From the IMG/VR virus record IMGVR_UViG_3300015263_000653, positions 25,857-89,856 of that record: DNA of 64,000 bases. One strand, given 5' to 3'. The position numbers and the translations under genes were made by a program. Under the pieces are notes generated by a model. That model saw only the letters and a list, made by a program, of their open reading frames with translations. It had not been told where the DNA came from and did not search any database. Origin of the DNA: a virus. Positions 1 through 38,338 of the stretch are shown here, in pieces (position 1 is the first letter of the stretch; each line of letters starts with the position of its first letter).

Positions 1-25
1 CCCTCTAACACCCACTTGGAGGACA

Positions 26-184
26 ATGATGGAAGACGGGACAAGAGTGTATGTGCCAAGCGTTGGCAAGAGCGGAACGATGAAGTTCTCAGTGCCCGGC
101 AATGGCACGTTCCGCTGGTATATCGTCGAGTTCGACGACGGCACTGAGGATCGTTTTGTCCTTGAGGATTTGCAGCGGGAGTAA
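26..184 (+). CDS. Small hypothetical cassette protein (52 aa, MMEDGTRVYVPSVGK...LEDLQRE)
   Basis: Translated by hand; GGAGG just upstream; stop TAA is the first triplet of repeat 182. Confidence 0.75.
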   Translation: MMEDGTRVYVPSVGKSGTMKFSVPGNGTFRWYIVEFDDGTEDRFVLEDLQRE

Positions 185-232
185 CACCCGCTTGAGTCCT
201 GTACAACACACAACACCTTTTGGAGATCGCTG

Positions 233-547
233 ATGTTGACAGACGAACAAAAGAAAGAGCGTCGGTTTCTCAGTCACAACATTGAACTGGGACAACGGGG
301 CCGCAAGCGGATGCCGTTCAGCGAAGTCTGTATGCACATGCGGATCGCTGGCAAGTACATGGATTTCGAGTTGCTCAACAAGGAGTATCCCGGAGTCCAG
401 TTGTACGAAGACGGTCGCCCGTTCTCTGGCTCGATCACGACCGGCGAAGCTGGCATCTTCCATGACTCGGAGCGGGGATATTACTACTACCCCCACGAGT
501 ACAACGCCGAGAACATGGACGACGCCGCCGACAACCCGCCCAGTTGA
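233..547 (+). CDS. Hypothetical cassette protein (104 aa)
   Basis: TTTTGGAG RBS; stop TGA begins repeat 545. Confidence 0.85.
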   Translation: MLTDEQKKERRFLSHNIELGQRGRKRMPFSEVCMHMRIAGKYMDFELLNKEYPGVQLYEDGRPFSGSITTGEAGIFHDSERGYYYYPHEYNAENMDDAADNPPS

Positions 548-562
548 CACCCGCTTGAACCT

Positions 563-593
563 CACCTCAGTAACTCAAAGAGTTACTGAGGTG
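563..593. other. Perfect 14-bp hairpin CACCTCAGTAACTC-AAA-GAGTTACTGAGGTG
   Basis: Inverted repeat read directly; sister copy at 5328-5358. Confidence 0.9.
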
Positions 594-626
594 GACAACC
601 CCGAACCCATTTGGAGGAACACCCAC

Positions 627-830
627 TTGAAAGACAGAACAACCCTTGGCCTGATGGCAGCACTGCTGAGCATGGGCGGCATCATCCCGATGCCATCGTC
701 GGAACCTCGTCGCCGTGTGTATCGGTCGCCAGAGGAACGGCGAGACCTGAACGCCGTCAAGGCGGAAAAGAAGCGAAAGCGGAAGATTTCGCAGAAGTCC
801 CGCAAGGCCAATCGACGCAAGGCGGCATAA
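627..830 (+). CDS. Small protein with hydrophobic N-part and very basic C-terminus (67 aa, ends RRKAA)
   Basis: GGAGG then TTG start; stop begins repeat 828; start uncertain. Confidence 0.7.
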   Translation: MKDRTTLGLMAALLSMGGIIPMPSSEPRRRVYRSPEERRDLNAVKAEKKRKRKISQKSRKANRRKAA

Positions 831-880
831 CACCCGCTTGAACAACGTACAACACACAACACTTTCTGAGGAGATCGCTG

Positions 881-1273
881 ATGAGTTTCAAGTTTCGCCA
901 CGTTACCGTCAAGCTCGGCAACATGCGGAAAGAGGCCGAGTTCGTGGTCTGTCCGGTGAGCAATACCGCTCCCCATGAGATCACGATTCAGAGTGACAAG
1001 CGGATTGCCCGTGTCAATCTGGAGACGAAAAAGGTCATCGTGAGCGATGGCAAGGGCGGGCATCCGGGCTTCCACAAGCTGCAAGCGTTCTGTGGAGCGA
1101 AGGAATACGACGCCCCGCAAGACCTGCTCGACCAGTTGTCCGCACTGGAAGAGGATCACGGCCCGATGGAGTCTGGCCCGGTGGTTGTCATGGATGAGAA
1201 CGGCCCGGCCCCCAGCGTCCACGCTCGGCGTGAGACTGTCCCCAGCGGCCCGGTTTCCATCTTCGACCTGTAA
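881..1273 (+). CDS. Hypothetical cassette protein (130 aa)
   Basis: GAGGAG RBS; stop begins repeat 1271. Confidence 0.85.
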   Translation: MSFKFRHVTVKLGNMRKEAEFVVCPVSNTAPHEITIQSDKRIARVNLETKKVIVSDGKGGHPGFHKLQAFCGAKEYDAPQDLLDQLSALEEDHGPMESGPVVVMDENGPAPSVHARRETVPSGPVSIFDL

Positions 1274-1341
1274 CACCCGCTTGGAGACTGTGAGACAGGA
1301 GTGGCCTGTCTCACAGTCAATCCAACTTTTGGAGTGGACCA

Positions 1342-1665
1342 ATGGCGAAAGACAAGCCAAAGATTGAGATCAAGTATGCTGACCGTGTTGTCGGCAGCTA
1401 CACCCTGTACCGCTCAATGCCAAAGGGCGCACGAGTCACCCAATGGGGAACATTCTTCCCCGGTCAAGGCGAGGATGGTTATGGTCGCAAGATCACAACC
1501 GACATCATCTTGATTTTCAATGGCGAGAGCAAGCGGAAATACCGGGTCTATGCGACCTGCTTTTCCAACTGTGCAAGCCACTGGATCACCTATCAGGGGC
1601 AGACGTTGCACCTTGGCACTCACTTTCAGGATGAGATCAAGCCGGAAAGTGAGATCCCGAAGTAA
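1342..1665 (+). CDS. Hypothetical phage protein (107 aa; GYGRKITT...RVYATCFSN)
   Basis: TTTTTGGAG RBS after a 14-bp hairpin; stop begins repeat 1663. Confidence 0.85.
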   Translation: MAKDKPKIEIKYADRVVGSYTLYRSMPKGARVTQWGTFFPGQGEDGYGRKITTDIILIFNGESKRKYRVYATCFSNCASHWITYQGQTLHLGTHFQDEIKPESEIPK

Positions 1666-1717
1666 CACCCGCTTGGAAGGTGTCAGCAATGGGGCTGACA
1701 CCTTTCTGGAGAACACA

Positions 1718-2050
1718 ATGCACCAACTCGTTATCGCCCATCACCCGCAGGACGTTGACCCTTCCGCCCCGATGGCGGACTCGCCGTTCTGGGCGTGGCT
1801 GGAAGAACACCCGCTTTCAGTCTGTCACGTTGCACTGCTCAAGTATCTCGGAGCGGAGAATTATCCACGAGAGATGCGGCGTGGAATGCTCAACGAAACT
1901 GAGCACATGTGCTACAAGCACATCCATGCTCACTTTTGGTGGACTCGGTTGCGGCAGCCGAAACCGGTGGTTGAGAAGACCCCGGAGCCGATCACGCCCC
2001 CGGAGTTGATTTCAGTCATCAGCTTCGATGGCATCAAGCGGCTGGTCTGA
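1718..2050 (+). CDS. Hypothetical cassette protein (110 aa, His-rich)
   Basis: GGAG RBS and ATG at 1718; stop TGA begins repeat 2048. Confidence 0.8.
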   Translation: MHQLVIAHHPQDVDPSAPMADSPFWAWLEEHPLSVCHVALLKYLGAENYPREMRRGMLNETEHMCYKHIHAHFWWTRLRQPKPVVEKTPEPITPPELISVISFDGIKRLV

Positions 2051-2101
2051 CACCCGCTTGGAGAGTGTACAACACACAACACACTTTTGGAGATCGCCAT
2101 C

Positions 2102-2434
2102 ATGGCACGTTGCGAAGACTTCCCCTGCTGTGGGCATGAACCCGGATGCTGCCCGGACTACGATGAGTCGGGCCGTCAGTTGAACATGGTTTGCGTCTGT
2201 GGGGCAAAGCTGCCCATCGACAGCCGCTACTCGATCTGTGCGAGTTGTATGCGAGACCCGGACGACCCCGATTTCGACCGGGATTTCGATGACGACTTCG
2301 AGGATGACGAAGAGGATTTCGACGAAGAGGACGACTACGAGCGTCGTCAGGACGAGATTCTGGAGCGTCAGGAACTCGAAGACTTCGAGCAGGCCGACGA
2401 ATACTTCGGTGGCTACGGCGGGGAGGACTGGTAG
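2102..2434 (+). CDS. Cys-rich (putative Zn-binding) protein with highly acidic C-terminal half (110 aa)
   Basis: CEDFPCCGH, CVCG, CASC motifs then D/E tract; stop TAG overlaps repeat 2434. Confidence 0.85.
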   Translation: MARCEDFPCCGHEPGCCPDYDESGRQLNMVCVCGAKLPIDSRYSICASCMRDPDDPDFDRDFDDDFEDDEEDFDEEDDYERRQDEILERQELEDFEQADEYFGGYGGEDW

Positions 2435-2446
2435 GACACCCGCTTG

Positions 2447-2590
2447 GAATACACTGGGGGAGACCGGGTAAAACGCCTCGGTCCCCAACTATCAAACCTA
2501 AAGCGACCCGACAGGCCGCACCCGGTTCTCCCCCTTTGATTTACCTTTTTCGTCACTGGGCGACGGCGAATGTCCAGAACACAACGCCAG
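2447..2590 (+). ncRNA. Non-coding cassette, candidate structured small RNA
   Basis: No RBS-led ORF; GGGGGAGACCGGGT pairs with ACCCGGTTCTCCCCC, followed by a T-rich tract. Confidence 0.5.
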
Positions 2591-2639
2591 TAACACCCGC
2601 TTGGACAGCGGTAACACAACACAACTTTTGGAGTCAGCC

Positions 2640-2819
2640 ATGACACCGGCTCAACGTCAGCAGCGGCAAAACATTCGCAATGCGTATCTTGTGGCATCCA
2701 TCGAAGAGATGGAAGCTGGCAAGGCTCAACAGAACGATTTCGGCAAGAGCGTCCTGCAAGAGATGATCGACGAGTGCAAACAGCACGGCGTTGACAACTA
2801 TGGGAAGACTCCCCTCTAA
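2640..2819 (+). CDS. Small hypothetical cassette protein (59 aa)
   Basis: TTTTGGAG RBS; stop begins repeat 2817. Confidence 0.8.
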   Translation: MTPAQRQQRQNIRNAYLVASIEEMEAGKAQQNDFGKSVLQEMIDECKQHGVDNYGKTPL

Positions 2820-2868
2820 CACCCGCTTGGGGAGTGTACAACACACAACACCTTTTTCGGAGATCGTG

Positions 2869-3372
2869 ATGAAAACCGTCACACGTCAAAGCCAGTGGGG
2901 GACTGGCAACATGGTTGTCGAGATCAGCGATGGTGGGATTGACTACTGCAACCCCGATGCACTGTCCGCAAAGTATCGGGGCGAGTTCGAGGAATTTGCC
3001 GATCCTCGTGAGGCAGTGGAAACCGCTATCACCATCGCTCAACAGTGGCAGGCGGATGCTCCCGATAAGACCATCCTGATTGACCACGGTGGCACCGGTG
3101 GAATGACCATGCCATTCGATGGGATGGAACTGGGAGAGGAAACCTACACCGCTCTGAGGGAGTGGGCAAACAGCCAGTATGAGGAACTGGAGAAATGTTG
3201 CCGCTGTGGCGACATCCTCGGCAAAGAGCGATGGACACACCCGGAACTCTGCGAAGAGGAAAAGTTCTGCTCTGAGAACTGCTGTGACAACGCCTACTGG
3301 GACATGATGAAAGAACTCGAAGAGGAGGAGGAGGAGGAGGACGAGGATGAAGAAGTAGAGGACGACGAGTAA
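2869..3372 (+). CDS. Acidic protein with C-terminal Zn-finger-like motif and poly-E/D tail (167 aa)
   Basis: CCRCG...FCSENCC, EEEEEEEDEDEEVEDDE; stop begins repeat 3370. Confidence 0.85.
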   Translation: MKTVTRQSQWGTGNMVVEISDGGIDYCNPDALSAKYRGEFEEFADPREAVETAITIAQQWQADAPDKTILIDHGGTGGMTMPFDGMELGEETYTALREWANSQYEELEKCCRCGDILGKERWTHPELCEEEKFCSENCCDNAYWDMMKELEEEEEEEDEDEEVEDDE

Positions 3373-3440
3373 CACCCGCTTGGAAGGTGTCAGGCAGGAG
3401 AATGGGCCTGCCTGACACTTTTCACAACTCGGAGAACACC

Positions 3441-3647
3441 ATGCCAAAGGCGCAATCGCAGTACAAGCCTATCGGCCAGTATCGGTTTCCCGCAATGGGC
3501 GGGCCGACTGTGACCTATGGGCAGAAACCCTACTACGGCAGGCGGATGCAGTATTTGCCAGCCGTGAGAACGACAATGCTTCAAGTCCAAGTGATGGTTC
3601 TCGGCTCGTTGATGTGGATCAACGTGAGGCCCGAGGATCTGAAGTAA
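3441..3647 (+). CDS. Small hypothetical cassette protein (68 aa)
   Basis: GGAG RBS after hairpin; stop begins repeat 3645. Confidence 0.75.
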   Translation: MPKAQSQYKPIGQYRFPAMGGPTVTYGQKPYYGRRMQYLPAVRTTMLQVQVMVLGSLMWINVRPEDLK

Positions 3648-3697
3648 CACCCGCTTGGGTGATGTAACATCAGCAACCCCCGTAAGGGAGAAGAACA

Positions 3698-3847
3698 GTG
3701 CATTTCGACAAACGCAAGGCCAAACGTGCCGACAAACGACGCCGAGACAAGGAGATCGAGCGTTGCAAGAGGGAGCACGGGAATCGGGGTGAAAAGAACA
3801 CTCGGAAGCGTCCCCGATTCGACGAGTTTGACAGGGAAGCGGCGTAA
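3698..3847 (+). CDS. Small basic protein (49 aa, ends DREAA)
   Basis: Translated by hand from GTG after AAGGGAG; stop begins repeat 3845. Confidence 0.65.
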   Translation: MHFDKRKAKRADKRRRDKEIERCKREHGNRGEKNTRKRPRFDEFDREAA

Positions 3848-3896
3848 CACCCGCTTGGGGACTGTCAATCAACAATCCAACTTTTGGAATGAAGCC

Positions 3897-4082
3897 ATGA
3901 AGGTCGCCACGCATCGTTACCCCCGGACTGCTCAGGAGTCTCGGGAAGTCATCACCGACGTTGATTTCAGCGTCAAGGCCCGCAAGCGGAAGTTGCCCAA
4001 CTGCTGGGACGACAAGCCACGGGGAGACCACGATCACCGCTCGTGGAAGCGTCATCGCCGCAACCAGTGGAAGGCAGCCTAA
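3897..4082 (+). CDS. Small basic protein (61 aa, ends QWKAA)
   Basis: RYPRT, LPNCWDD, SWKRHRR; stop begins repeat 4080. Confidence 0.8.
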   Translation: MKVATHRYPRTAQESREVITDVDFSVKARKRKLPNCWDDKPRGDHDHRSWKRHRRNQWKAA

Positions 4083-4132
4083 CACCCGCTTGTAGGCTGT
4101 ACAACACACAACACCTTTTCAGGAGTCGAGCG

Positions 4133-4504
4133 ATGAACTTCGCCGTCAACACCAAAGACAGCATCTTGGCAACCTTGCGGGATGCGATTGATTTGCAGGA
4201 TTACATGGTCAAGGCCGACCACATTCTGGATGCCCTGATGACGACGGCAGGCGTCTGGACTGAGTGTGGCTATGCCTACAAGGCGACTGAGATCGCCAAT
4301 ATCATCGGCCAGCGGTTCACCGATGAGATCGGCAATTGCCATCACCACAAGACCCACGCCAAGATCGACACCATGCGGATCAAGGCGTACACCGTCGCCC
4401 GGTTCTTCTGTGAACAGCAGTACGAGTATCGGGAAGCCCAGCAAGCGGAGATCGACGCCATGTTGGGCATCGAACACAAGACCGATATGGAGCTTGCGAG
4501 CTAA
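4133..4504 (+). CDS. Hypothetical cassette protein (123 aa)
   Basis: AGGAG RBS; stop begins repeat 4502. Confidence 0.85.
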   Translation: MNFAVNTKDSILATLRDAIDLQDYMVKADHILDALMTTAGVWTECGYAYKATEIANIIGQRFTDEIGNCHHHKTHAKIDTMRIKAYTVARFFCEQQYEYREAQQAEIDAMLGIEHKTDMELAS

Positions 4505-4514
4505 CACCCGCTTG

Positions 4515-4585
4515 GAAGGTGTTGAGAGGGTGCTGTCTGGAGGCGACAGCCAAGTGTCACCCAGTCTCAGGTGAAACAGCCCGAT
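4515..4585 (+). ncRNA. Short non-coding cassette with nested stems
   Basis: TGAGA/TCTCA, GGGTG/CACCC and GCTGTC/GACAGC pairings; no ORF. Confidence 0.45.
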
Positions 4586-4616
4586 CAACACCCGCTTGTA
4601 AAGTGTCACCGGTGGC

Positions 4617-4824
4617 AAGGACGACCGGGGAGAACACTGAGACAACCGATTAGCCCACCGCTACCTACTGTCTTTACCGAAACTGCTGTGACAGCCGCCA
4701 GTCTGATGACGGGTTTACCGTACCTTGGCCGAGGCGTTGTCCACTGGAAACGGCGACAGCAAAAGTAGGCAGAGTGGACGGTGTGCGAATCGAGTCTCAG
4801 TGAAGTATCCCCGGTCCTCTCCTT
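4617..4824 (+). ncRNA. ~210-nt rod-like structured RNA cassette (6S-like architecture)
   Basis: Nested pairings AAGGA/TCCTT, GACCGGGGA/TCCCCGGTC, CACTGAGAC/GTCTCAGTG, CGATT/AATCG, CCAC/GTGG, CCTAC/GTAGG, TGCTGT/ACAGCA, GCCG/CGGC, CCAGT/ACTGG. Confidence 0.7.
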
Positions 4825-4873
4825 CAACACCCGCTTGTACAACGTAACAACAACACCTTCTGAGGGCCACAAG

Positions 4874-5014
4874 ATGAATCAGCGTCGGATCTACCAACTC
4901 ATGACGGAGTTGGGCAAGGAACTGGAGTCGTACAATCCGCCCGGCAATGTCAAGTTCAAGGCGGCAATCGCTGGCCTGCGAGCGGCCATCAAGAGTTTGC
5001 GAGTGTTCTTCTAA
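4874..5014 (+). CDS. Small hypothetical cassette protein (46 aa)
   Basis: GAGG RBS; stop begins repeat 5012. Confidence 0.75.
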   Translation: MNQRRIYQLMTELGKELESYNPPGNVKFKAAIAGLRAAIKSLRVFF

Positions 5015-5065
5015 CACCCGCTTGGACAACGTAACAACACAACCCACTTCTCAGGAGTTCACACG

Positions 5066-5299
5066 ATGAACCACAATCCCGGCGTCAACCGCATGAAGAA
5101 CATCGCCCGCAATGGCTTCCTGTCCTCGCTGGTCGCCAAGGCCCACGCCGGGCAGCGGCCCGACATCACCCTCAAGCCGAAGGGCGTCACCTGTGAGGAA
5201 CTGGAGAAGTACCTCAAGGCCAACAACTGCGGCTGGACCAAGCACGCTGGCGGACGGTATGTCATCGGCTCCCTGCGACCGGCCCGCAAGGCAGCGTAA
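5066..5299 (+). CDS. Small basic cassette protein (77 aa, ends ARKAA)
   Basis: AGGAG RBS; stop begins repeat 5297. Confidence 0.8.
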   Translation: MNHNPGVNRMKNIARNGFLSSLVAKAHAGQRPDITLKPKGVTCEELEKYLKANNCGWTKHAGGRYVIGSLRPARKAA

Positions 5300-5309
5300 C
5301 ACCCGCTTG

Positions 5310-5375
5310 GAGAGTGTCAGCCAACAACCCCTCAGTTACTCTTTGAGTAACTGAGGGGGAGCGGCTGGCCGGGAC
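5310..5375 (+). other. Non-coding cassette containing a perfect 14-bp hairpin (5328-5358)
   Basis: CCCCTCAGTTACTC-TTT-GAGTAACTGAGGGG inside an outer GTCAGCC/GGCTGGC stem. Confidence 0.8.
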
Positions 5376-5428
5376 CAACACCCGCTTGGACCGTGTTAAG
5401 ACCACAACACCTTTTTGGAGATCGAGTC

Positions 5429-6001
5429 ATGTTGAAGTTGTTTGTTCTGGAGTGCAGCACCGTCGAGGAACTGGAATCGGCAATGTCCCGCATGGGGCTG
5501 AGCAAGGTCAAGCCCGAACTGGCTGTGCTGGTCACGCCCGGTGGCAACGTCGAGGAGCCGACGCCAACGCCGCCTGCCCCCAAGGCTGACACCCGCTTGG
5601 AAAGTGTTGAGACGGAAACGACTCAACCGCCAGCCCCCAAGGCTGACGCCAAGCCGCCCCGCAAGTCGAAGCGGAAGGGTGGCGGGGGTGGCTTCCGCAA
5701 GGCAGCCCCCAAGACGTTCACCGATTTGTCGAAGCTGGAAGGCATCGGCATCTATCACAAGGCCGATGGCACGCAGAAGGTTGTGGGCATCATCGGACGG
5801 AGCGAAGGCAAGGGCGGCAACGCTGGTCACGAGATTCTGTGGCTCGGCAACGTCGAGCGGAAGGACGGCGAGATTGTGTGCTGGTCCTTCGCCAACGGCG
5901 ACCCGTGGACGCACAACGCCACCCGCTTCCCGGAAACGATCACCGATCTGGCCCCGTACAGCCCGGACTACGCCGAACTGCTGGTCGAGATGGTGGGCTA
6001 A
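5429..6001 (+). CDS. Hypothetical protein (190 aa) with Pro/Lys linker that reads through an internal array repeat
   Basis: TTTTTGGAG RBS; repeat 5587 is translated as ADTRLESV; stop begins repeat 5999. Confidence 0.8.
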   Translation: MLKLFVLECSTVEELESAMSRMGLSKVKPELAVLVTPGGNVEEPTPTPPAPKADTRLESVETETTQPPAPKADAKPPRKSKRKGGGGGFRKAAPKTFTDLSKLEGIGIYHKADGTQKVVGIIGRSEGKGGNAGHEILWLGNVERKDGEIVCWSFANGDPWTHNATRFPETITDLAPYSPDYAELLVEMVG

Positions 6002-6011
6002 CACCCGCTTG

Positions 6012-6099
6012 GAAAGTGTCGAGAGGGGGACGACAACCCCTCTCGCTCTTTCCTCTCTCTCACTCTCAACTGCGAGTGAGTGAGAGGGGAGAGACAGAC
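6012..6099 (+). other. Non-coding cassette with two hairpins
   Basis: CGAGAGGGG/CCCCTCTCG and TCCTCTCTCTCACTC...GAGTGAGTGAGAGGGGA. Confidence 0.6.
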
Positions 6100-6152
6100 T
6101 AACACCCGCTTGTAAGTTGTGAGAGGACACAACACTAACCGAAAGGGATCGA

Positions 6153-6611
6153 ATGCTGCAAGAGTTGAAAGGGATCGTCGAGGGCATGGGCAAGAGCAAA
6201 GCCAAGCCCGAACTGGTCGCTCTGATCGAGCGAGCCGAGACGCAAGGCCAAGCCGCTGATCCGAAGCGATGGGCCTATGCGGGAGTCACCTTGATGGCCG
6301 TGATGAGTGCTGGACTCAACGGCTACGCCAACGCACAGCACGCAACTGTGCCGATGGCAGGGTGGGCGATGGGGATTGCAATCCCCGCCATCGTCCTGAT
6401 CCTCGCCCGTGTGGCAGGGATCAACTGGAAGGCAGGACGCAAGGCGATGGCGAAGGCCGGGGCTGGCGTCGGCATCGGATTGCTTGTCTTGTCAGTGTGG
6501 CACTGTGCTACTAGCATCAGCCTGCTGACTGGCAGCCATGTGCTACTCGCACTGCCGATGGCACTGGCTATTGATGCGGGGCTGGTGTACTGCGAGTGCA
6601 ACACATTGTAA
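6153..6611 (+). CDS. Multi-pass membrane protein (152 aa)
   Basis: About four hydrophobic segments; stop begins last repeat 6609. Confidence 0.85.
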   Translation: MLQELKGIVEGMGKSKAKPELVALIERAETQGQAADPKRWAYAGVTLMAVMSAGLNGYANAQHATVPMAGWAMGIAIPAIVLILARVAGINWKAGRKAMAKAGAGVGIGLLVLSVWHCATSISLLTGSHVLLALPMALAIDAGLVYCECNTL

Positions 6612-6869
6612 CACCCGCTTGTATTATGTAAGAGGGACACATGACTCACTCGCTGAATCGCAGCGAGTGAGTGTGTTGCAAAAATTGTAATTGAGAAACT
6701 CTCAATTTTTTTTGTGCCATGTGGCCCATGGGGGAGGCACCCCCGCCGCTATGTCACCCCCCTCTCTTATATTAACAAGAAGAAATTTTTCAGACGCCTG
6801 CGCAGCAAAAACCGAAACTCCGAAACTTCTTTGGAGTGAGGCTATATCTCAGAAAAGGAGAAGAAAGCG

Positions 6870-32341: not shown

Positions 32342-32647
32342 TTAAGCAGTTTCTTCGAGAAATTCTTTCAAGAAGATTCTGTAGACTGTGGCGTAGGCAA
32401 TTCCCCACTCTCGACTGTGGGCGTCCTTATTGTCATACCACGCCATTGTATGCGCCCACTCATGCAACAAAACGTCAATCGCTTCATGCTCGGGCAGATG
32501 CCGGTCAATGCGAATCAGATACCGCTCACTCGAACGACGACAATCCCCATCCAGATCTTTCGGCAAAGCAACACGACGGACGCTGACCGGCAAATCAGTG
32601 GAGAATCGTCTTTTGAGGAATAGGATGACACGTCTGTAAGTTCTCAC
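32342..32647 (-). CDS. Small zincin-like metallopeptidase (HEXXH)
   Basis: LLHEWAH...AH..EW. Confidence 0.75.
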   Translation of the reverse strand: MRTYRRVILFLKRRFSTDLPVSVRRVALPKDLDGDCRRSSERYLIRIDRHLPEHEAIDVLLHEWAHTMAWYDNKDAHSREWGIAYATVYRIFLKEFLEETA

Positions 32648-32671
32648 AACCGTATTTAACGGTTATGAAAA

Positions 32672-33322
32672 TCAATTCTGCACAAACTGGACCACAACCT
32701 CGGGTTCCACCAGTTCATTCAACTCTCGAAATTCCTTCGCATGTTCTTCACGATCCTCCCAGATTACAACTTTTGTGATGGAAGGATGTGATGTGAGGTA
32801 CTGGTCGATGATCCAGAACTTCCATGGAAGAGTTTCGCTGGGAATGGTTCCCTGTGGTGCTGGCCCTTTATCGCCGAGAAACCAGCATGTAATCTGAGAA
32901 TCAACGATATCACAGAAGAGATCCTTCTGAGACTTCTTGCGTCGAATCTCTACCAAGCCGCCATCGCCAGCGATTCGGAGCACCTGATTACGCAGTCCGC
33001 CGTGTCGCCCCGTCATCAGGAGCGTGATTGTCTCTGGATTGGCCTTGCTCTCCTTCAGAGCTTGGCACGGCTCGGGGATGAACAGGTCTTTTGGAGTCGG
33101 ATCAGGGACCAATGGCGGTTCCAGAGTTTCCCGACGCCCGAACCAGCCCCGCCGCATTCCGATGAATTTCCCGTGCTTTTTCGAGAGTTCACGGGACTTA
33201 TTCTTGTCGATGAGCCATGGAATCCCCGTGGCCTTCTCGAATTTCCGCCTGTTTTCCGGCGTATCCAGAGGTGTTTTGACGAGAGTTCCGTCGAAATCGA
33301 AGATGTCTAATTGGGTTGCCAT
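32672..33322 (-). CDS. HAD-family phosphatase, Swiss-Army-Knife RNA-repair-like
   Basis: IFDFDGTLVKTP, LMTGR, K, WEDREEH. Confidence 0.8.
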   Translation of the reverse strand: MATQLDIFDFDGTLVKTPLDTPENRRKFEKATGIPWLIDKNKSRELSKKHGKFIGMRRGWFGRRETLEPPLVPDPTPKDLFIPEPCQALKESKANPETITLLMTGRHGGLRNQVLRIAGDGGLVEIRRKKSQKDLFCDIVDSQITCWFLGDKGPAPQGTIPSETLPWKFWIIDQYLTSHPSITKVVIWEDREEHAKEFRELNELVEPEVVVQFVQN

Positions 33323-33451
33323 CCTTGGCTCTCCTTTCACTTTTGGCCCGAAATGGATTGTCCCACAATTCAATCAAAGGCGCAATACCTTTGTTTCTCT
33401 GACACTTGCGGTGAATTCGGGTTCGCTTCCAAATTTTTTTTCGTGGGACCG

Positions 33452-33479
33452 TTGACAGCCAGATTCCATTCGATATCTT
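33452..33479 (+). promoter_or_regulatory. Sigma70-like promoter TTGACA-N16-TATCTT
   Basis: Perfect -35 box and plausible -10 in intergenic DNA. Confidence 0.55.
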
Positions 33480-33549
33480 ATGACCATCGCACTTGCGAGC
33501 GGCCAAAACGAGACGCAAACGAGTGCAGAAAAAAAATGAAAACAGTGAG

Positions 33550-33578
33550 TTGACAACCGCAACACGAAAGGATAAAAC
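33550..33578 (+). promoter_or_regulatory. Sigma70-like promoter TTGACA-N17-TAAAAC
   Basis: Perfect -35, 17-nt spacer, about 10 nt upstream of the first stem of the large RNA. Confidence 0.65.
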
Positions 33579-33584
33579 AACGAA

Positions 33585-34615
33585 CATGACAGTCATCGCC
33601 GGGAAACGCAACACCGTTTGTGACACAAGGTTATGACTGTTCACTGAGTCCATCGGGAAACCTTAGAAGGGGTAGGAAACTGCAACTTCTAAGAGTACGA
33701 AACCCAAAACCATCAAAGCGAAGTAAGGTTGTCTTATAGAAGAGATTCTTTAAGACGGCGACTGCTTCGAGGGTGGGCACGATCCGAAAGTTCAGACACT
33801 ACTTCTGAGATGCGTCAAGGAAGCAAGACTGTTCTATAAGGTGAGTGGCGATTCAGGCTAACCATAGGTGGAGACACCGAGTCCGTCAGTACAACGGACG
33901 AGTTGGGTAAACCTGAGATCGCAAACCGATGGCGGGCACCAATGTCTGGGTGCAGTTGGTCGTATGAAGCCCAAACCCAGAAATGGGGTAAGGAGAAAAG
34001 GGCCAACATCACGGAGGAGTTCAGACCCATGCTGGGAAACGAAGGCATCGGCAGATGTCTCCAGTAATGATCTGAGCTAACTACCCAGACTGAGAGAGCG
34101 GCTAAATCAAAGGGCGTCGTGCCGTGACAAACGGAGACGAAGTAAGTGGGTGAATAGCCTACCAAAAGCAGCACCCTTTGGGAACGCCGTCCGCAAGGAG
34201 AACCAGAGTCGTTCTGGAATACTCTCGATGAGCCTACGAGGTAACACGGCCTCGTTAGAAATGGCGCAGGACCGAACCTGCGACGACAAAAAGGAACTTG
34301 GGAGAATGACACCGAGGCGAAGGCATTCGAAAGAGATGGTCACTTGTTGAAGGGCTAACCGCTGGTAACAGGCGTACTCCTGACGATGAGCGAACATTGT
34401 TTGAAGTCTGCAAGAGCTAAAAGTCGTCAACCCAAGATCGGTGCTTGAAAGGTCAAACTGATGGTCGGGGGAGAGAACCTCCTCTGAAGGTGAGTGCTAC
34501 CTTTCAAGAAGGCTGCGTAAAGACCGAGTAAACGTGGCGGCGATACGGAAAGTGTCGTTGCACAAAGCACTTGCTGAGGGAAGCCCGGTCCAACCGAAAG
34601 GTTGGGCCGGGTTTT
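33585..34615 (+). ncRNA. Candidate large (~1 kb) structured non-coding RNA
   Basis: No convincing gene in an otherwise gene-dense genome; promoter in front and terminator behind; many stems (ACAGTCAT/ATGACTGT, CTTAGAAG/CTTCTAAG, GTCTTA/TAAGAC, GTCCGT/ACGGAC, GGAGACA/TGTCTCC, TGACGA/TCGTCA, CTTGAAAGGT/ACCTTTCAAG); frequent GNRA loops. Confidence 0.75.
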
Positions 34616-34622
34616 TCTTTTC
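34581..34622 (+). terminator. Strong rho-independent terminator
   Basis: GCCCGGTCCAACC-GAAA-GGTTGGGCCGGGT then TTTTCTTTT. Confidence 0.9.
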
Positions 34623-34730
34623 CTTCCCTTCCTTGACCATCGGTCAACTCCGTCCTAAAATGAAACATTCAACCAGCCGTATCGTGCGGCGGTTAGCGAC
34701 AATCTGTTTCTGATTGGAGGTTTAGCCACC

Positions 34731-34991
34731 ATGGCGCAACCTAACGAGTTCGTTCTTGCAAAGGACGACAACGGAAGACATTTCGAAGAATTCTGTGGAG
34801 AAGACGAGCCAGACAAGCTCATGGAGATCACCCAGCGAGCTTTGGCTGGAACTCTGGGAGGCCATGTACCGGTTCCCGGAGAGCGGTATGCGGGGCGTCT
34901 GTATGGATACCCCGGTCGCATTCTCGTCAAGCTGACACGTCGTCGCCCGAAGCACATCCGGCGACAAGGCCGTCTGATCAAAGTGGCGTAG
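34731..34991 (+). CDS. Hypothetical protein (86 aa)
   Basis: GGAGG RBS; terminator downstream. Confidence 0.75.
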   Translation: MAQPNEFVLAKDDNGRHFEEFCGEDEPDKLMEITQRALAGTLGGHVPVPGERYAGRLYGYPGRILVKLTRRRPKHIRRQGRLIKVA

Positions 34992-35030
34992 GTTTCTCCA
35001 GATGGTTCCCTGCCTCTGGTTTCTGCGGTG

Positions 35031-35070
35031 AGAGCCGCTTCCCTTCACGGGGAGGCGGCTCTTTTTCTTT
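35031..35070 (+). terminator. Rho-independent terminator
   Basis: AGAGCCGCTTCCC-TTCAC-GGGGAGGCGGCTCT-TTTTCTTT. Confidence 0.85.
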
Positions 35071-36401
35071 CAGTAGATCTCTTCCCAGTTGAGCGATCCG
35101 TAACTCAGCGTCGAGCTTCCGGTGACGCTGGTGATCACAATGCTCAACACGTCGCTGTTTGTCAGCGATTGTTTGGAAAGCAAACCTTCTCCCAGTCCAG
35201 AATTTGTGTTGTTGCCCTGAGCGTTGGCCGGAACGTATCCCGAGGCCACGATCTGTCCGCCAGTGATCGCTGTGGCAGCAACATCTCTTTCTGCCAAGCT
35301 GTTGCTGCCGACCGATGCCCATGATGGCCCGGTGAGGGTTCCGCCGAGAACCACCTCGAAGAAAATGTTCTCCGAAGCGGACAAGACAGAGAAGGCAGTG
35401 GGGACTATGTGCCCATGGTTCGTCAGGGTGTTGAAGAGTGCCGACTTTCTGACCGAAAGAATCGGCCTTCTCGTTGTGACTGCGATTCCAGTTGCGCCAT
35501 TGGCTGCTGAGAATGGATAGCCTTCTCTCTCAAGGCCACCCTCGCTGATCACAGCCGAACAAATCTGGATGAGATCGGTGTTGCTGGCTGATGTTGATGT
35601 GTTCTCGATCTCATATCGCAGCGGCAAATTCGCCGTCTGGGTGTAAACCATCGTGACGAAGTTTGCGTGCAAAAATTCGTGGCAGTAAACCAGAACACCA
35701 TCGATGTCAAAACCAAAGCGAACTCGGCCCACACCCAACCATTGAAAGTCGATCACAAAGATGTGTGCTTTCGAGATGTCGAGAGTTTTGCCTGAGTTGC
35801 CAGAGCCATCGAGCGGATCGAGATTCCAAGATGATTGAGAAACAGGCGTGTTGACGACAGAGCCACTGGCCGAGGATCGGATAACCACCTTGAGGTTGTC
35901 GGCGTCCTGCTCGAAGAACATTCCATCTGAATCTTCGAAGTATCCGATTCGCTGAACAACACCGGTTTTCTTGGCTCCCATCACGCCGGTCATGAAGATC
36001 TGTTGGCTCTTGCCCGGCAGATAACGGAAGTATCTCTTGGTTGTCCGAGTTACCTTGTCGCCGCTGGCGGTTCCAACTCTCAATCGAACAGATGATTGGT
36101 CGGCCAGATGGGCAATCGTGCCGCCGCCTGATGTCGAATCGCTCCAGACAAGAGGTTGAGTGTTGTACTGGTGCTGGACTTCGAAGATCGTGAGGGGGTT
36201 GGAGACTCGGAACCGACCGAACGCATCTTGTGTTGCAGTTGGGAGCCGTACAGGAATTGGATTGATCAGTGATGCGTCGGTTGCTGTCCCGTCTGCGCCG
36301 TATTGGAGTTTTACTCGTTGGTGCTGTACGCCGCCGATCTCGTCTGTGGCAACGCTGGCCCCTTTGGTTTTCGGTTGATTGATTATTACGTTGTCTGTCA
36401 C
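35070..36401 (-). CDS. Probable virion/structural protein, beta-rich (443 aa)
   Basis: S/T/G-rich; DAFGRFRVSNP, RYLPGK, DFQWLGVGRVRFGF motifs typical of a phage family. Confidence 0.7.
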   Translation of the reverse strand: MTDNVIINQPKTKGASVATDEIGGVQHQRVKLQYGADGTATDASLINPIPVRLPTATQDAFGRFRVSNPLTIFEVQHQYNTQPLVWSDSTSGGGTIAHLADQSSVRLRVGTASGDKVTRTTKRYFRYLPGKSQQIFMTGVMGAKKTGVVQRIGYFEDSDGMFFEQDADNLKVVIRSSASGSVVNTPVSQSSWNLDPLDGSGNSGKTLDISKAHIFVIDFQWLGVGRVRFGFDIDGVLVYCHEFLHANFVTMVYTQTANLPLRYEIENTSTSASNTDLIQICSAVISEGGLEREGYPFSAANGATGIAVTTRRPILSVRKSALFNTLTNHGHIVPTAFSVLSASENIFFEVVLGGTLTGPSWASVGSNSLAERDVAATAITGGQIVASGYVPANAQGNNTNSGLGEGLLSKQSLTNSDVLSIVITSVTGSSTLSYGSLNWEEIY

Positions 36402-36835: not shown

Positions 36836-38338
36836 TCAAACAGGTCGCATGTATTCCATGTGTTTGCGGAAGTTGTCGAGTTCGAGGTTTCTCTTTCTCT
36901 CCTCGATTCCATCCTTGTCCTGCTGGCCCGTGAACGGGTCGATCAGATCGAGGAACGCATCGTCGATGGTTTCTTGCCCATCTTCGCTCGACTTGTAGAC
37001 CTTCACTCTGGGGCTCTTGCTGAAGCCGAGGAAGGCGTCAACCACGCTACCGTCGAGGCCACCGAGTTTGGTTCCCCACTCTCGAAGTTTTCGGCCCGAA
37101 ATACCGCTGCTCATCATGCCGTTGGTGAGATCCATGAGCGTGTTACCGTCCATGTTCTCATTCATTCCAAGGCTCTTGATGAGGAAGGCGATCTTCTTCA
37201 TGTCCTTCTGATCCAAACCAAGATCTTCCAACATCTCAGGTGGGTTGCCACGCAAGGCCCAAGCGAGCGGCATGTGCTTGTCGCCCATCTCGGAAAGTTC
37301 TTTGGGCAGATCGCCGTCGATCATCTTGCCGGGGAACAAGGAATCCAGCAGGCCGAAGTCCTTGAACAGCTTCAGGAACTTTCTGGTATCTGTGTCGTCC
37401 TTGTCCATGCACTTCTTGAATTCGCCCATCTTGGTCTTGGAGTCCAGCTTAGACAGAAGTTCTGGGCCAAGTTTGGCAATGGTTTCTCTGTCTTCAACTG
37501 GAACCTTCTTCGAATCACCATAGCCGTTCATGAACCGCATATAACGCATGAGGCGTTTTGGGTCTTCCTTGAACTTCTTCTTCATGTCGCCGATAGGAAC
37601 AACCTTGCCCGCTGCCATGTGATGGATTCCACCGTGAAAGTCAGTCAGTTCTTTGTTGGGGCCGTTGTCATTACTCAGAAGGATATACATCCCGTTCATC
37701 GTAAAGTCACGGCTGTTGGAATCATCACCTTGGGTTCCGGGTTCTCTGTCCCCATCAACGCCACGAGGTGACTTGGTGAAGCATTCGAGTTCGAATTCGT
37801 CTTCATTGACCTTGAGTCCGAAGACAAAGGGTCGGCCATTCTTATTGGCCTGTTGCACCCAGAACAACTGGTTAGCACCTTCCTTCTTATTCGGATTTGC
37901 ATGGGCACTCTTAGAAGATGAGCCATCGTTCTTGATGAACGAGAATCCGTTCTGCTTCAGAAGGTGATACACTTCGTCTGGGGAAGCATTGGTCGCCAGT
38001 TCGATATTTCTGGCTTTGCGGCCTGCGAGATAGTCTCGGACAGCACCACCGGCGAGGTACAATTTCTTGCCAGAGATCTTCACTGGCTTGTCTTCACCGC
38101 TGGCGTCATCTTTGGACCAACCCCAGTTGCCGCCTGATTTGAAAGCACGCACGATGGGTGCGAGGTTCTTGTTTTTTCCGTAGTGTTCTGACTTCGGATC
38201 GTCTGAGACATTGAAGGGTTCGTAGTCATTGCCATCGCCAAGTGTGACCTTGGCACTCAATGCACCACTATCGGCACTCTTGTCGTGCTCGTTGCCTTCT
38301 CTCAGATTTCTGAATTGATTGAATGATTTGAAACTCAT
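36836..38338 (-). CDS. CCA-adding/poly(A) polymerase-family nucleotidyltransferase, divergent active site
   Basis: LAGGAVRDYL, NIELATNASP (DxD position reads NxE), SRDFTMN, EDPKRLMRYMRF. Confidence 0.85.
   Translation of the reverse strand: MSFKSFNQFRNLREGNEHDKSADSGALSAKVTLGDGNDYEPFNVSDDPKSEHYGKNKNLAPIVRAFKSGGNWGWSKDDASGEDKPVKISGKKLYLAGGAVRDYLAGRKARNIELATNASPDEVYHLLKQNGFSFIKNDGSSSKSAHANPNKKEGANQLFWVQQANKNGRPFVFGLKVNEDEFELECFTKSPRGVDGDREPGTQGDDSNSRDFTMNGMYILLSNDNGPNKELTDFHGGIHHMAAGKVVPIGDMKKKFKEDPKRLMRYMRFMNGYGDSKKVPVEDRETIAKLGPELLSKLDSKTKMGEFKKCMDKDDTDTRKFLKLFKDFGLLDSLFPGKMIDGDLPKELSEMGDKHMPLAWALRGNPPEMLEDLGLDQKDMKKIAFLIKSLGMNENMDGNTLMDLTNGMMSSGISGRKLREWGTKLGGLDGSVVDAFLGFSKSPRVKVYKSSEDGQETIDDAFLDLIDPFTGQQDKDGIEERKRNLELDNFRKHMEYMRPV

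Follow-up and report, generated by a model that had tools for sequence, protein, structure and literature searches.

The subject of this analysis is an RNA gene at positions 33586-34621 (+ strand) of a 64,000-nucleotide stretch of viral DNA, hereafter the window, which corresponds to bases 25857-89856 of the 89.9-kb IMG/VR virus record IMGVR_UViG_3300015263_000653. We are confident that it is a stand-alone gene for a non-coding RNA (ncRNA) of approximately 1.0 kb from a huge phage, with sigma70-type promoter-like sites, an intrinsic terminator and at least 34 helices, whose fold has been kept by compensatory changes across lineages. The RNA belongs to no catalogued RNA family, and we take it to represent a new family of phage RNAs, large and ornate, which may well self-associate. 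The gene measures about 1,035 nt when counted from the nearer of two upstream promoter-like sites (P2), or about 1,135 nt if counted from the farther one (P1). Origin from a tailed phage was confirmed by matches to baseplate-wedge and virion-protein families in PHROG and, as the record is estimated to be 18% complete, the full phage genome should be roughly half a megabase. An earlier note, made from the letters alone, had already proposed a structured RNA gene at this place; covariation, the absence of a conserved open reading frame (ORF) and discrete RNA contigs in four studies all support that proposal.

Homologues were reached through the phosphatase gene adjoining the RNA: an alignment of HAD proteins was scanned against metagenome contigs, which gave 79 loci (designated here by L numbers), and nhmmer was then run for the RNA. 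Full or near-full copies were found in L086, L087, L089, L090, L095, L104 and L109, and a fragment in L088, with an identity to the window's copy of only 47-61%. On an alignment of eight sequences (A2), RNAalifold predicted 198 pairs, of which 120 are kept through changes on both sides, so that the collection of homologues suggested in the earlier note came out in favor of a conserved fold. An independent count found 90.4% of cells in standard pairs, as opposed to 32-48% when the 3' partners were slid by 1-3 columns, together with 122 pairs carrying double changes (26-46 in the slid controls) and a covariation score of 0.507 (0.07-0.15 in the slid controls). None of 500 shuffles reached the observed values, and double changes occur in 25 of the 34 helices. 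Moreover, the segment 33588-34577 has a minimum free energy of -357 kcal/mol, compared with -305 +/- 6 kcal/mol for dinucleotide shuffles (z = -8.4; -8.41 with a further decimal), and variants among RNA contigs are compensatory at 33664/33691, 33674/33681 and 33886/33894.

Three helices had been named from the single sequence, and they did not fare equally well. Helix 33662-69/33686-93 has full covariation support, whereas the other two are each kept in five of the eight sequences. The first of these, 33589-96/33633-40, forms a 5' hairpin (33589-33640, + strand) that is variable among lineages, with one compensatory pair, and cannot be aligned in L095, L104 and L109; the second, 34444-53/34499-508, is kept only in part and competes with another predicted helix.

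The gene lies in an interval of 1.4 kb, bounded by the HAD_SAK_1 start codon at 33322 (minus strand) and, on the + strand, by the next credible start at 34731, which is preceded by a GGAGG ribosome site. The claim that this interval holds no convincing gene was upheld, as no + strand ORF longer than 70 aa was found in it under table 11, table 4, TAG=Q or TAA=Q, and no frame is conserved across the eight homologues, in which the longest open frame varies from 75 to 174 aa and the frames differ. Minus-strand frames, which reach 165-174 aa in the window's copy, might raise the suspicion of a gene that encodes a protein, with or without recoding, or of an RNA acting as leader or antisense to a neighboring gene. 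However, the homologues do not keep these frames (in L109, no open frame exceeds 75 aa), a Pfam search of the minus-strand frames of the interval gave no match, and indels among the homologues do not come in multiples of three. The interval is also purine-rich, as previously remarked (59% purine compared with 51% over the whole window), which explains spurious open frames on the pyrimidine-rich minus strand. In addition, the RNA is set apart from the next ORF by a strong terminator as well as another promoter-like site, and we consider the probability of this explanation to be negligible.

Transcription of the RNA gene

The tandem sigma70 promoters described in the earlier note are partly sustained: both sites are conserved, but RNA contigs back only a start close to the second. 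Site P1 (33452-33479, + strand; TTGACA-N16-TATCTT), obtained by consensus scan, sits behind a T-run and has a canonical TAnnnT as its -10 element. Of the seven relatives that extend far enough to include this site, six keep it at the corresponding alignment position, with a -35 element and a TAnnnT -10 element present there in L086, L087, L089, L090 and L095. Site P2 (33550-33578, + strand; TTGACA-N17-TAAAAC, with the -35 element at 33550-33555 and the -10 element at 33573-33578) is kept in L086, L089, L090, L095 and L104, and missing in L087, which has only P1. The longest RNA contig begins at 33588, that is, 10 nt past the -10 element of P2. RNA contigs do not cover the leader between both sites (33480-33587), which we take as a weak hint only. 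Overall, tandem promoters are plausible from conservation, while the RNA contigs support only a start near P2.

In two relatives, the region upstream of the RNA gene contains two to three tandem promoter modules (L095:2550-2981 and L104:1152-1466, on the minus strand of these loci), each composed of TTGACG, 16-17 nt, TAAGAT or TAAACT, and then a conserved CATCGTCGCTGG-like start region. Such repetition of promoter modules suggests very strong transcription.

At the other end, the gene closes with an intrinsic terminator (34578-34621, + strand), formed by a GC-rich stem, a GAAA loop and a U-run. The strength that had been attributed to it agrees with its fold energy, as 34578-34617 folds at -33.3 kcal/mol (z = -6) with the U-run next to it. 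An equivalent hairpin and U-run are found in all six homologues that reach the 3' end, with double changes in 15 of 20 pairs. The consensus scan did not list this terminator, probably since its stem can extend into the T-run. Directly after it (34633-34991, + strand), a promoter-like TTGACC-N17-TAAAAT is followed by an 86-aa ORF with a GGAGG ribosome site; the ORF had no Pfam match and was not found downstream of the RNA in the relatives.

To look for the transcript itself, we turned to public sequencing runs. The stretch was present almost whole in 13 runs recorded as RNA libraries, from five of the seven studies listed, with sample types given as soil, marine sediment, mangrove, 'sediment' and 'outdoor'; four of these 13 runs were flagged as probably DNA, and runs with small word shares (X19-X22) were not used. 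Cover was examined over 32600-35400 in four RNA runs, one per study, from four studies. RNA contigs cover about 33588-34577, at a word depth of ~8-230, and one of them is exactly 990 nt long, equal to 33588-34577. No RNA contig was found on 32600-33540 or 34670-35400, which include the HAD gene and the downstream ORFs; although absence of cover is weak evidence, the silent flanks argue against DNA carry-over. Thus, the RNA appears as a discrete species in environmental RNA libraries, and the neighboring genes do not. For the species of ~1030 nt that had been predicted, discrete contigs of up to 990 nt were recovered in four studies, but its strand and exact ends are not readable from them. Two points weigh against this account of transcription, namely that neither strand, exact ends nor RNA level can be read from assembled contigs, and that the -10 element of P2 is without its usual final T.

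We also observed short pieces of more divergent RNA contigs, whose similarity is limited to the conserved cores and in which helices H21-H23 are preserved with different nucleotides in the stems. Some of these contigs have greater depth than the exact copy, and the family must thus extend beyond the eight copies. A core of 46 nt (34256-34301, with 6 mismatches) is shared by divergent RNA contigs of 284-502 nt from runs X5 and X14, and contigs with this core reach a word depth of 102 in a soil run, in comparison to ~8 for the exact copy. More abundant relatives of this RNA family exist in soils.

Palindromic loops and candidate self-association

We then focused on hairpin A (33881-33899, + strand), which has a 6-bp stem and a 7-nt loop, CAGUACA (33887-33893), with a central GUAC, and is a candidate symmetric kissing loop. 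The loop is 7 nt long in seven of the eight sequences, and its central four nucleotides are GUAC in the window and L087, UGCA in L086 and L089, UCGA in L090, GAUC in L104 and CUAG in L095. In six sequences the palindrome occupies fixed loop positions 3-6; L089, in which it is shifted by one base, was left out of the gap-free alignment of these six, where positions 3/6 and 4/5 are complementary in all sequences, through three and four pair types, respectively. In these six, loop A centers are 100% self-complementary, compared with 33-46% in slid controls, and the background in these RNAs is that 3.7% of 4-mers are palindromic and 14% of 7-mers hold a palindrome. The closing pair of the hairpin, 33886/33894, changes from U-A to C-G in run X14. 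As adjacent bases cannot pair within one loop, the pattern points to the same loop of a second molecule. The same palindrome-covariation argument has been used for OLE L9.3 and GOLLD L21a, where it was checked against cryo-EM structures (PMC12286853).

A second hairpin, B (helix H17, 34043-34060), has a 7-nt loop in the relatives, and this loop is palindromic in six of the eight sequences (GUAC, UGCA, UCGA). Within one molecule, loops A and B are not complementary, with UGCA and GUAC, respectively, in L089, and UCGA and UGCA in L090. Given that the palindromes of loop B differ from those of loop A of the same molecule, A and B do not pair together.

Based on these sequence patterns, we tentatively favor, at a little under even probability, that the RNA does not act as a monomer and self-associates. 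Hairpin A, and in most relatives also hairpin B, would make a symmetric loop-loop (kissing) contact between two copies. A single type of contact would result in a homodimer, whereas two types could build up a larger assembly, either closed or open; structures of this kind have been solved for OLE, GOLLD and ROOL. More speculatively, the phage may rely on the assembly during infection, be it as a stable particle made of RNA or as a scaffold.

Several observations weigh against self-association. L109 is without the palindrome in loop A, and the window's copy has lost that of loop B, for which it has GGCA, and keeps only that of loop A. As regards the palindrome statistics, loops were chosen post hoc from about 15, and these statistics share with those on covariation a basis of eight sequences from about six lineages. 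Moreover, local folding can extend the stem into the loop, as for loop A in L095 and loop B in L109. It is in this light that a monomeric functional RNA should be considered, such as a large ribozyme, a host-factor sponge or a regulator, with the palindromes being due to chance, to an intramolecular contact or to contact with another partner. Conserved single-stranded purine-rich motifs are numerous, including GAGUACRAAACCCAAA, AUGAGCCU and UAGAARUGGC, and fit such an RNA, as does the lack of a palindrome in one of the two loops of some copies. Nevertheless, pairing inside one loop leaves unexplained five different palindromes at the same loop position, the loops A and B of one molecule are not mutually complementary in L089 and L090, and no ribozyme family was matched, so that we consider a monomer quite improbable and retain self-association as the preferred reading.

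Known families and comparable large RNAs

The search for a known family was negative throughout. The comparison with Rfam suggested by the earlier note was carried out, and no match was found to GOLLD, ROOL, OLE, HEARO, or group I or II introns; of the two possibilities left by that note, membership in the GOLLD/ROOL class was not supported, and the alternative of a new class holds. Rfam 15 gave no match to the window at the gathering score and, when 33300-34750 was searched at E-values up to 10, nothing but noise located on the terminator. For the seven homologues there was likewise no match at the gathering score, and for L087, L090 and L104, searched at E-values up to 5, only noise. Weak matches to THF, ctRNA, snoRNA and miRNA models were all on the terminator or noise, and were discarded. 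ARAGORN detected no tRNA or transfer-messenger RNA (tmRNA) in the interval, and no tRNA gene in the window or the seven homologous loci; with no match from Rfam or ARAGORN to ribosomal RNA (rRNA), RNase P RNA, tmRNA or tRNA, the absence of hallmarks of these RNAs and of group II introns, remarked upon earlier, was corroborated. In the literature searched, no description of this RNA was found.

Further sequence searches gave no additional copies. The gene is present as a single copy in the record, as neither covariance-model nor sequence search found a second one, and blastn against phage GenBank gave no match to the RNA. IMG/VR was searched with the single HAD protein (nothing), with the HAD alignment (80 loci, none with the RNA), with the CCA-like alignment (seven loci, none with the RNA), through a neighboring, common 443-aa virion protein (four loci of unrelated AT-rich phages, none with the RNA) and by two RNA motif scans (none, or chance matches only), while a genome contig scan gave three loci, none with the RNA. 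For the HAD protein itself, over 100 relatives were obtained (42-71% identity), of which some lie on contigs of 600-690 kb (up to 693 kb).

A decayed or ORF-less mobile element between two conserved genes, such as a group II intron remnant or a transposon guide RNA, was also weighed, since some close relatives have the RNA and others do not at a single intergenic hot spot, where L106 has three small ORFs instead. Group I or II introns and HEARO were set aside as candidates, with no model match and no reverse transcriptase- or HNH-like ORF in or beside the element; more generally, no Rfam model was matched, and no reverse transcriptase, transposase or nuclease ORF lies beside the RNA. In addition, the RNA gene has its own conserved promoters and terminator, is single-copy in the record, and its fold is under strong purifying selection, which leaves a mobile element very improbable.

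To our knowledge, only a handful of bacterial or phage RNAs are this large and elaborately folded. In kind, the RNA is closest to GOLLD and ROOL, being phage-borne, ornate and abundant. With GOLLD it shares a phage-encoded length above 800 nt, many covarying helices, GNRA loops, abundance in environmental RNA and a role that is not established; moreover, the symmetric kissing loop L21a of GOLLD, with its covarying central palindrome, has the signature seen in hairpin A. GOLLD forms a 14-mer nanocage, ROOL (Rfam RF03087) an octameric nanocage and OLE a homodimer (PMC12286853). Nevertheless, the RNA described here had no GOLLD model match at any threshold tried and is about 200 nt longer, and its assembly is suggested by a sequence signature, whereas GOLLD does assemble. 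Furthermore, GOLLD often lies beside tRNA genes, while this RNA lies beside the HAD phosphatase and CCA-like pair and not beside tRNA genes in the window and seven loci, the record of the phage studied covering only ~18% of its genome.

ROOL, too, comes from phages or prophages, is transcribed as a unit of its own, folds ornately and has no known protein partner, and its quaternary kissing loops have their counterpart in the candidate kissing loops A and B. The present RNA differs from ROOL in that there is no model match, it is nearly twice as long, no tRNA island is nearby and the helix layout is not the same. In OLE, loop L9.3 switches among the palindromes GGCC, GAUC and AGCU, and makes the dimer bridge (PMC12286853), which is the kind of change observed in hairpin A. 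However, OLE measures ~600 nt, is a cellular RNA encoded by Bacillota next to oap genes and acts together with Oap proteins, whereas here the RNA is from a phage and has no OLE model match. A likeness that is only mechanistic can be drawn to a further viral element. The dimerization initiation site of HIV-1 is a hairpin loop whose central palindrome, flanked by purines, lets it pair with its equivalent in another RNA molecule; the palindrome has 6 nt in a 9-nt loop, and the site belongs to a viral genome rather than to a stand-alone ncRNA.

The known large RNAs (GOLLD, ROOL and OLE) have lately been found to form RNA-only dimers and cages, the purpose of which is still not established. The present RNA adds a further, unrelated family of ~1 kb, which is abundant enough for its contigs to be assembled from small soil, mangrove and sediment metatranscriptomes and carries a dimerization-type signature. 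It therefore represents a new subject for cryo-EM, as well as a test of whether self-assembly is general in large phage RNAs.

Domain layout and genomic neighborhood

The RNA begins with the variable 5' hairpin, followed by domain 1 (33650-33932, + strand), which is closed by H1 (33650-56/33926-32), holds H2-H8 and is supported by covariation, with double changes in 6 of 7 pairs of H1 and 5 of 9 of H2; the compensatory metatranscriptome variants at 33664/33691 and 33674/33681 fall within it. A central junction (33935-34439, + strand) is then formed by the long-range helices H9 (33935-37/34437-39), nearly invariant, and H10 (33939-42/34261-64), with double changes in three of four pairs, and encloses domains 2-4. 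Domain 2 (33943-34091, + strand; H11-H17) includes hairpin B and has double changes in 6 of 10 pairs of H11 and in all seven of H17. Domain 3 (34099-34189, + strand; H18-H20) contains an insert of variable length, with L087 having a ~45-nt insertion. The most conserved block (34190-34282, + strand) is composed of hairpins H21-H24, with a GNRA loop and a AUGAGCCU...UAGAARUGGC motif; a covariance model of this block (R1) recovered all eight copies at E-values of 1e-16 to 1e-25, and nothing else. Domain 4 (34297-34436, + strand), a long irregular arm with H25-H30, shows double changes in all six pairs of H25, 6 of 7 of H27 and 11 of 13 of H28, and the 3' domain (34442-34575, + strand; H31-H33) in 4 of 5 pairs of H32 and 4 of 9 of H33.

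Within the conserved block, H22 and H23 (34206-34258) are neighboring hairpins whose loops are complementary in several copies: the H22 loop is GUUG in L086, L087, L089 and L095, with CAAC in the H23 loop, and the window's loops are CGU and ACG. The two loops may be engaged in a loop-loop tertiary contact, to judge from these letters.

Regarding the neighborhood, both RNA-end enzymes mentioned in the earlier note were confirmed by Pfam. The gene divergent from the RNA (32672-33322, minus strand) encodes a HAD_SAK_1 phosphatase (PF10307, E = 7e-9), and that at 36836-38338 (minus strand) a CCA-adding-enzyme-like nucleotidyltransferase (PF01743, PolyA_pol head domain; tRNA nucleotidyltransferase in PHROG). 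The HAD gene adjoins the RNA in 9/9 loci holding the RNA, which lies directly upstream of it and on the opposite strand in every case. In the relatives, a CCA-like gene of ~500 aa, 48-69% identical to that of the window, is found directly upstream of HAD, and the two genes form a constant pair in these huge phages. The RNA gene usually lies between the two, on the other strand, as in L086, L089 and L109; in the window, three further genes stand between the RNA and the CCA-like gene, and L095 has other genes on the side of its RNA gene that faces away from HAD.

The CCA-like protein itself has an altered motif. Comparison of the window's protein with those of L006, L086, L089, L097, L098, L101, L106, L108, L109 and L111 showed GGAVRD followed in most by N-[IV]-E, and in L086, L089 and L097 by D-[IV]-Q, but never the class II D-x-D, so that one carboxylate is kept at alternating positions. 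Being without D-x-D, the family may bind RNA rather than extend it.

From this arrangement, the RNA might be tied to an RNA 3'-end module composed of the CCA-like protein and the HAD phosphatase beside it. One could go further and propose that the RNA works with proteins, as a scaffold, cofactor, substrate or decoy for these two, e.g., when tRNA 3' ends are to be repaired or shielded in an infected cell. The constant divergence from HAD, the position between both genes in three loci and the altered motif of the CCA-like family would speak for such a role. On the other hand, no tRNA gene is nearby, L095 has other genes on the far side of its RNA gene, and enzyme-bearing relatives without the RNA are as close as, or closer than, RNA-bearing ones. 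Indeed, loci with the RNA do not group together in a CCA-like protein tree, where L109 is sister to L106 and L219, both of which have three small ORFs at the site of the RNA gene. We consider such a partnership unlikely, and it would be compatible with self-association. Hence, the link to RNA-end enzymes made in the earlier note stands as a conserved neighborhood, always divergent from HAD, and any functional tie is putative.

Two findings weigh on the same side: several close relatives keep both flanking enzymes without the RNA, and G003 (458.8 kb, 91% complete), which shares the CCA-like gene, gave no RNA match anywhere, so the tie of the RNA to the enzymes may be positional only. Its absence from close relatives makes the RNA an accessory, dispensable gene at a variable spot. 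Self-association may be combined with this accessory status in a bolder proposal, namely that this RNA assembles into a multimer made of RNA alone (dimer, ring or cage), as the largest natural one so far seen to do so, through two independent two-fold kissing contacts, of loops A and B, and that it is an exchangeable accessory gene of huge phages at an RNA 3'-end repair locus, where it would enclose or organize RNA substrates or the catalytically odd CCA-like protein; we hold this to be rather doubtful. The fixed position beside RNA-end enzymes, together with presence and absence in close relatives, offers a natural comparison for uncovering the role of the RNA.

At the same spot between the CCA-like and HAD genes, the near-identical lineages L109 and L106 hold different contents, the RNA gene in the former (3289-5000) and three small ORFs of 100, 160 and 156 aa in the latter (3516-5000), which looks like a replacement hot spot. 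Elsewhere in the window, TAACACCCGCTTG occurs in 28 copies (+ strand, at most one mismatch) confined to the first 6.6 kb (1-6621), and at up to two mismatches there are 34 matches window-wide, where chance alone would give 5.6. Around the RNA gene, which has sigma70-like sites instead, the signal is missing, and the RNA is therefore not one of the cassettes of the window's first 6.6 kb. Finally, a virion structural protein of 443 aa (35070-36401, minus strand; phrog_1645, E = 2e-110) is encoded between the RNA and the CCA-like gene, amid RNA-metabolism genes, and its IMG/VR relatives belong to unrelated AT-rich phages.

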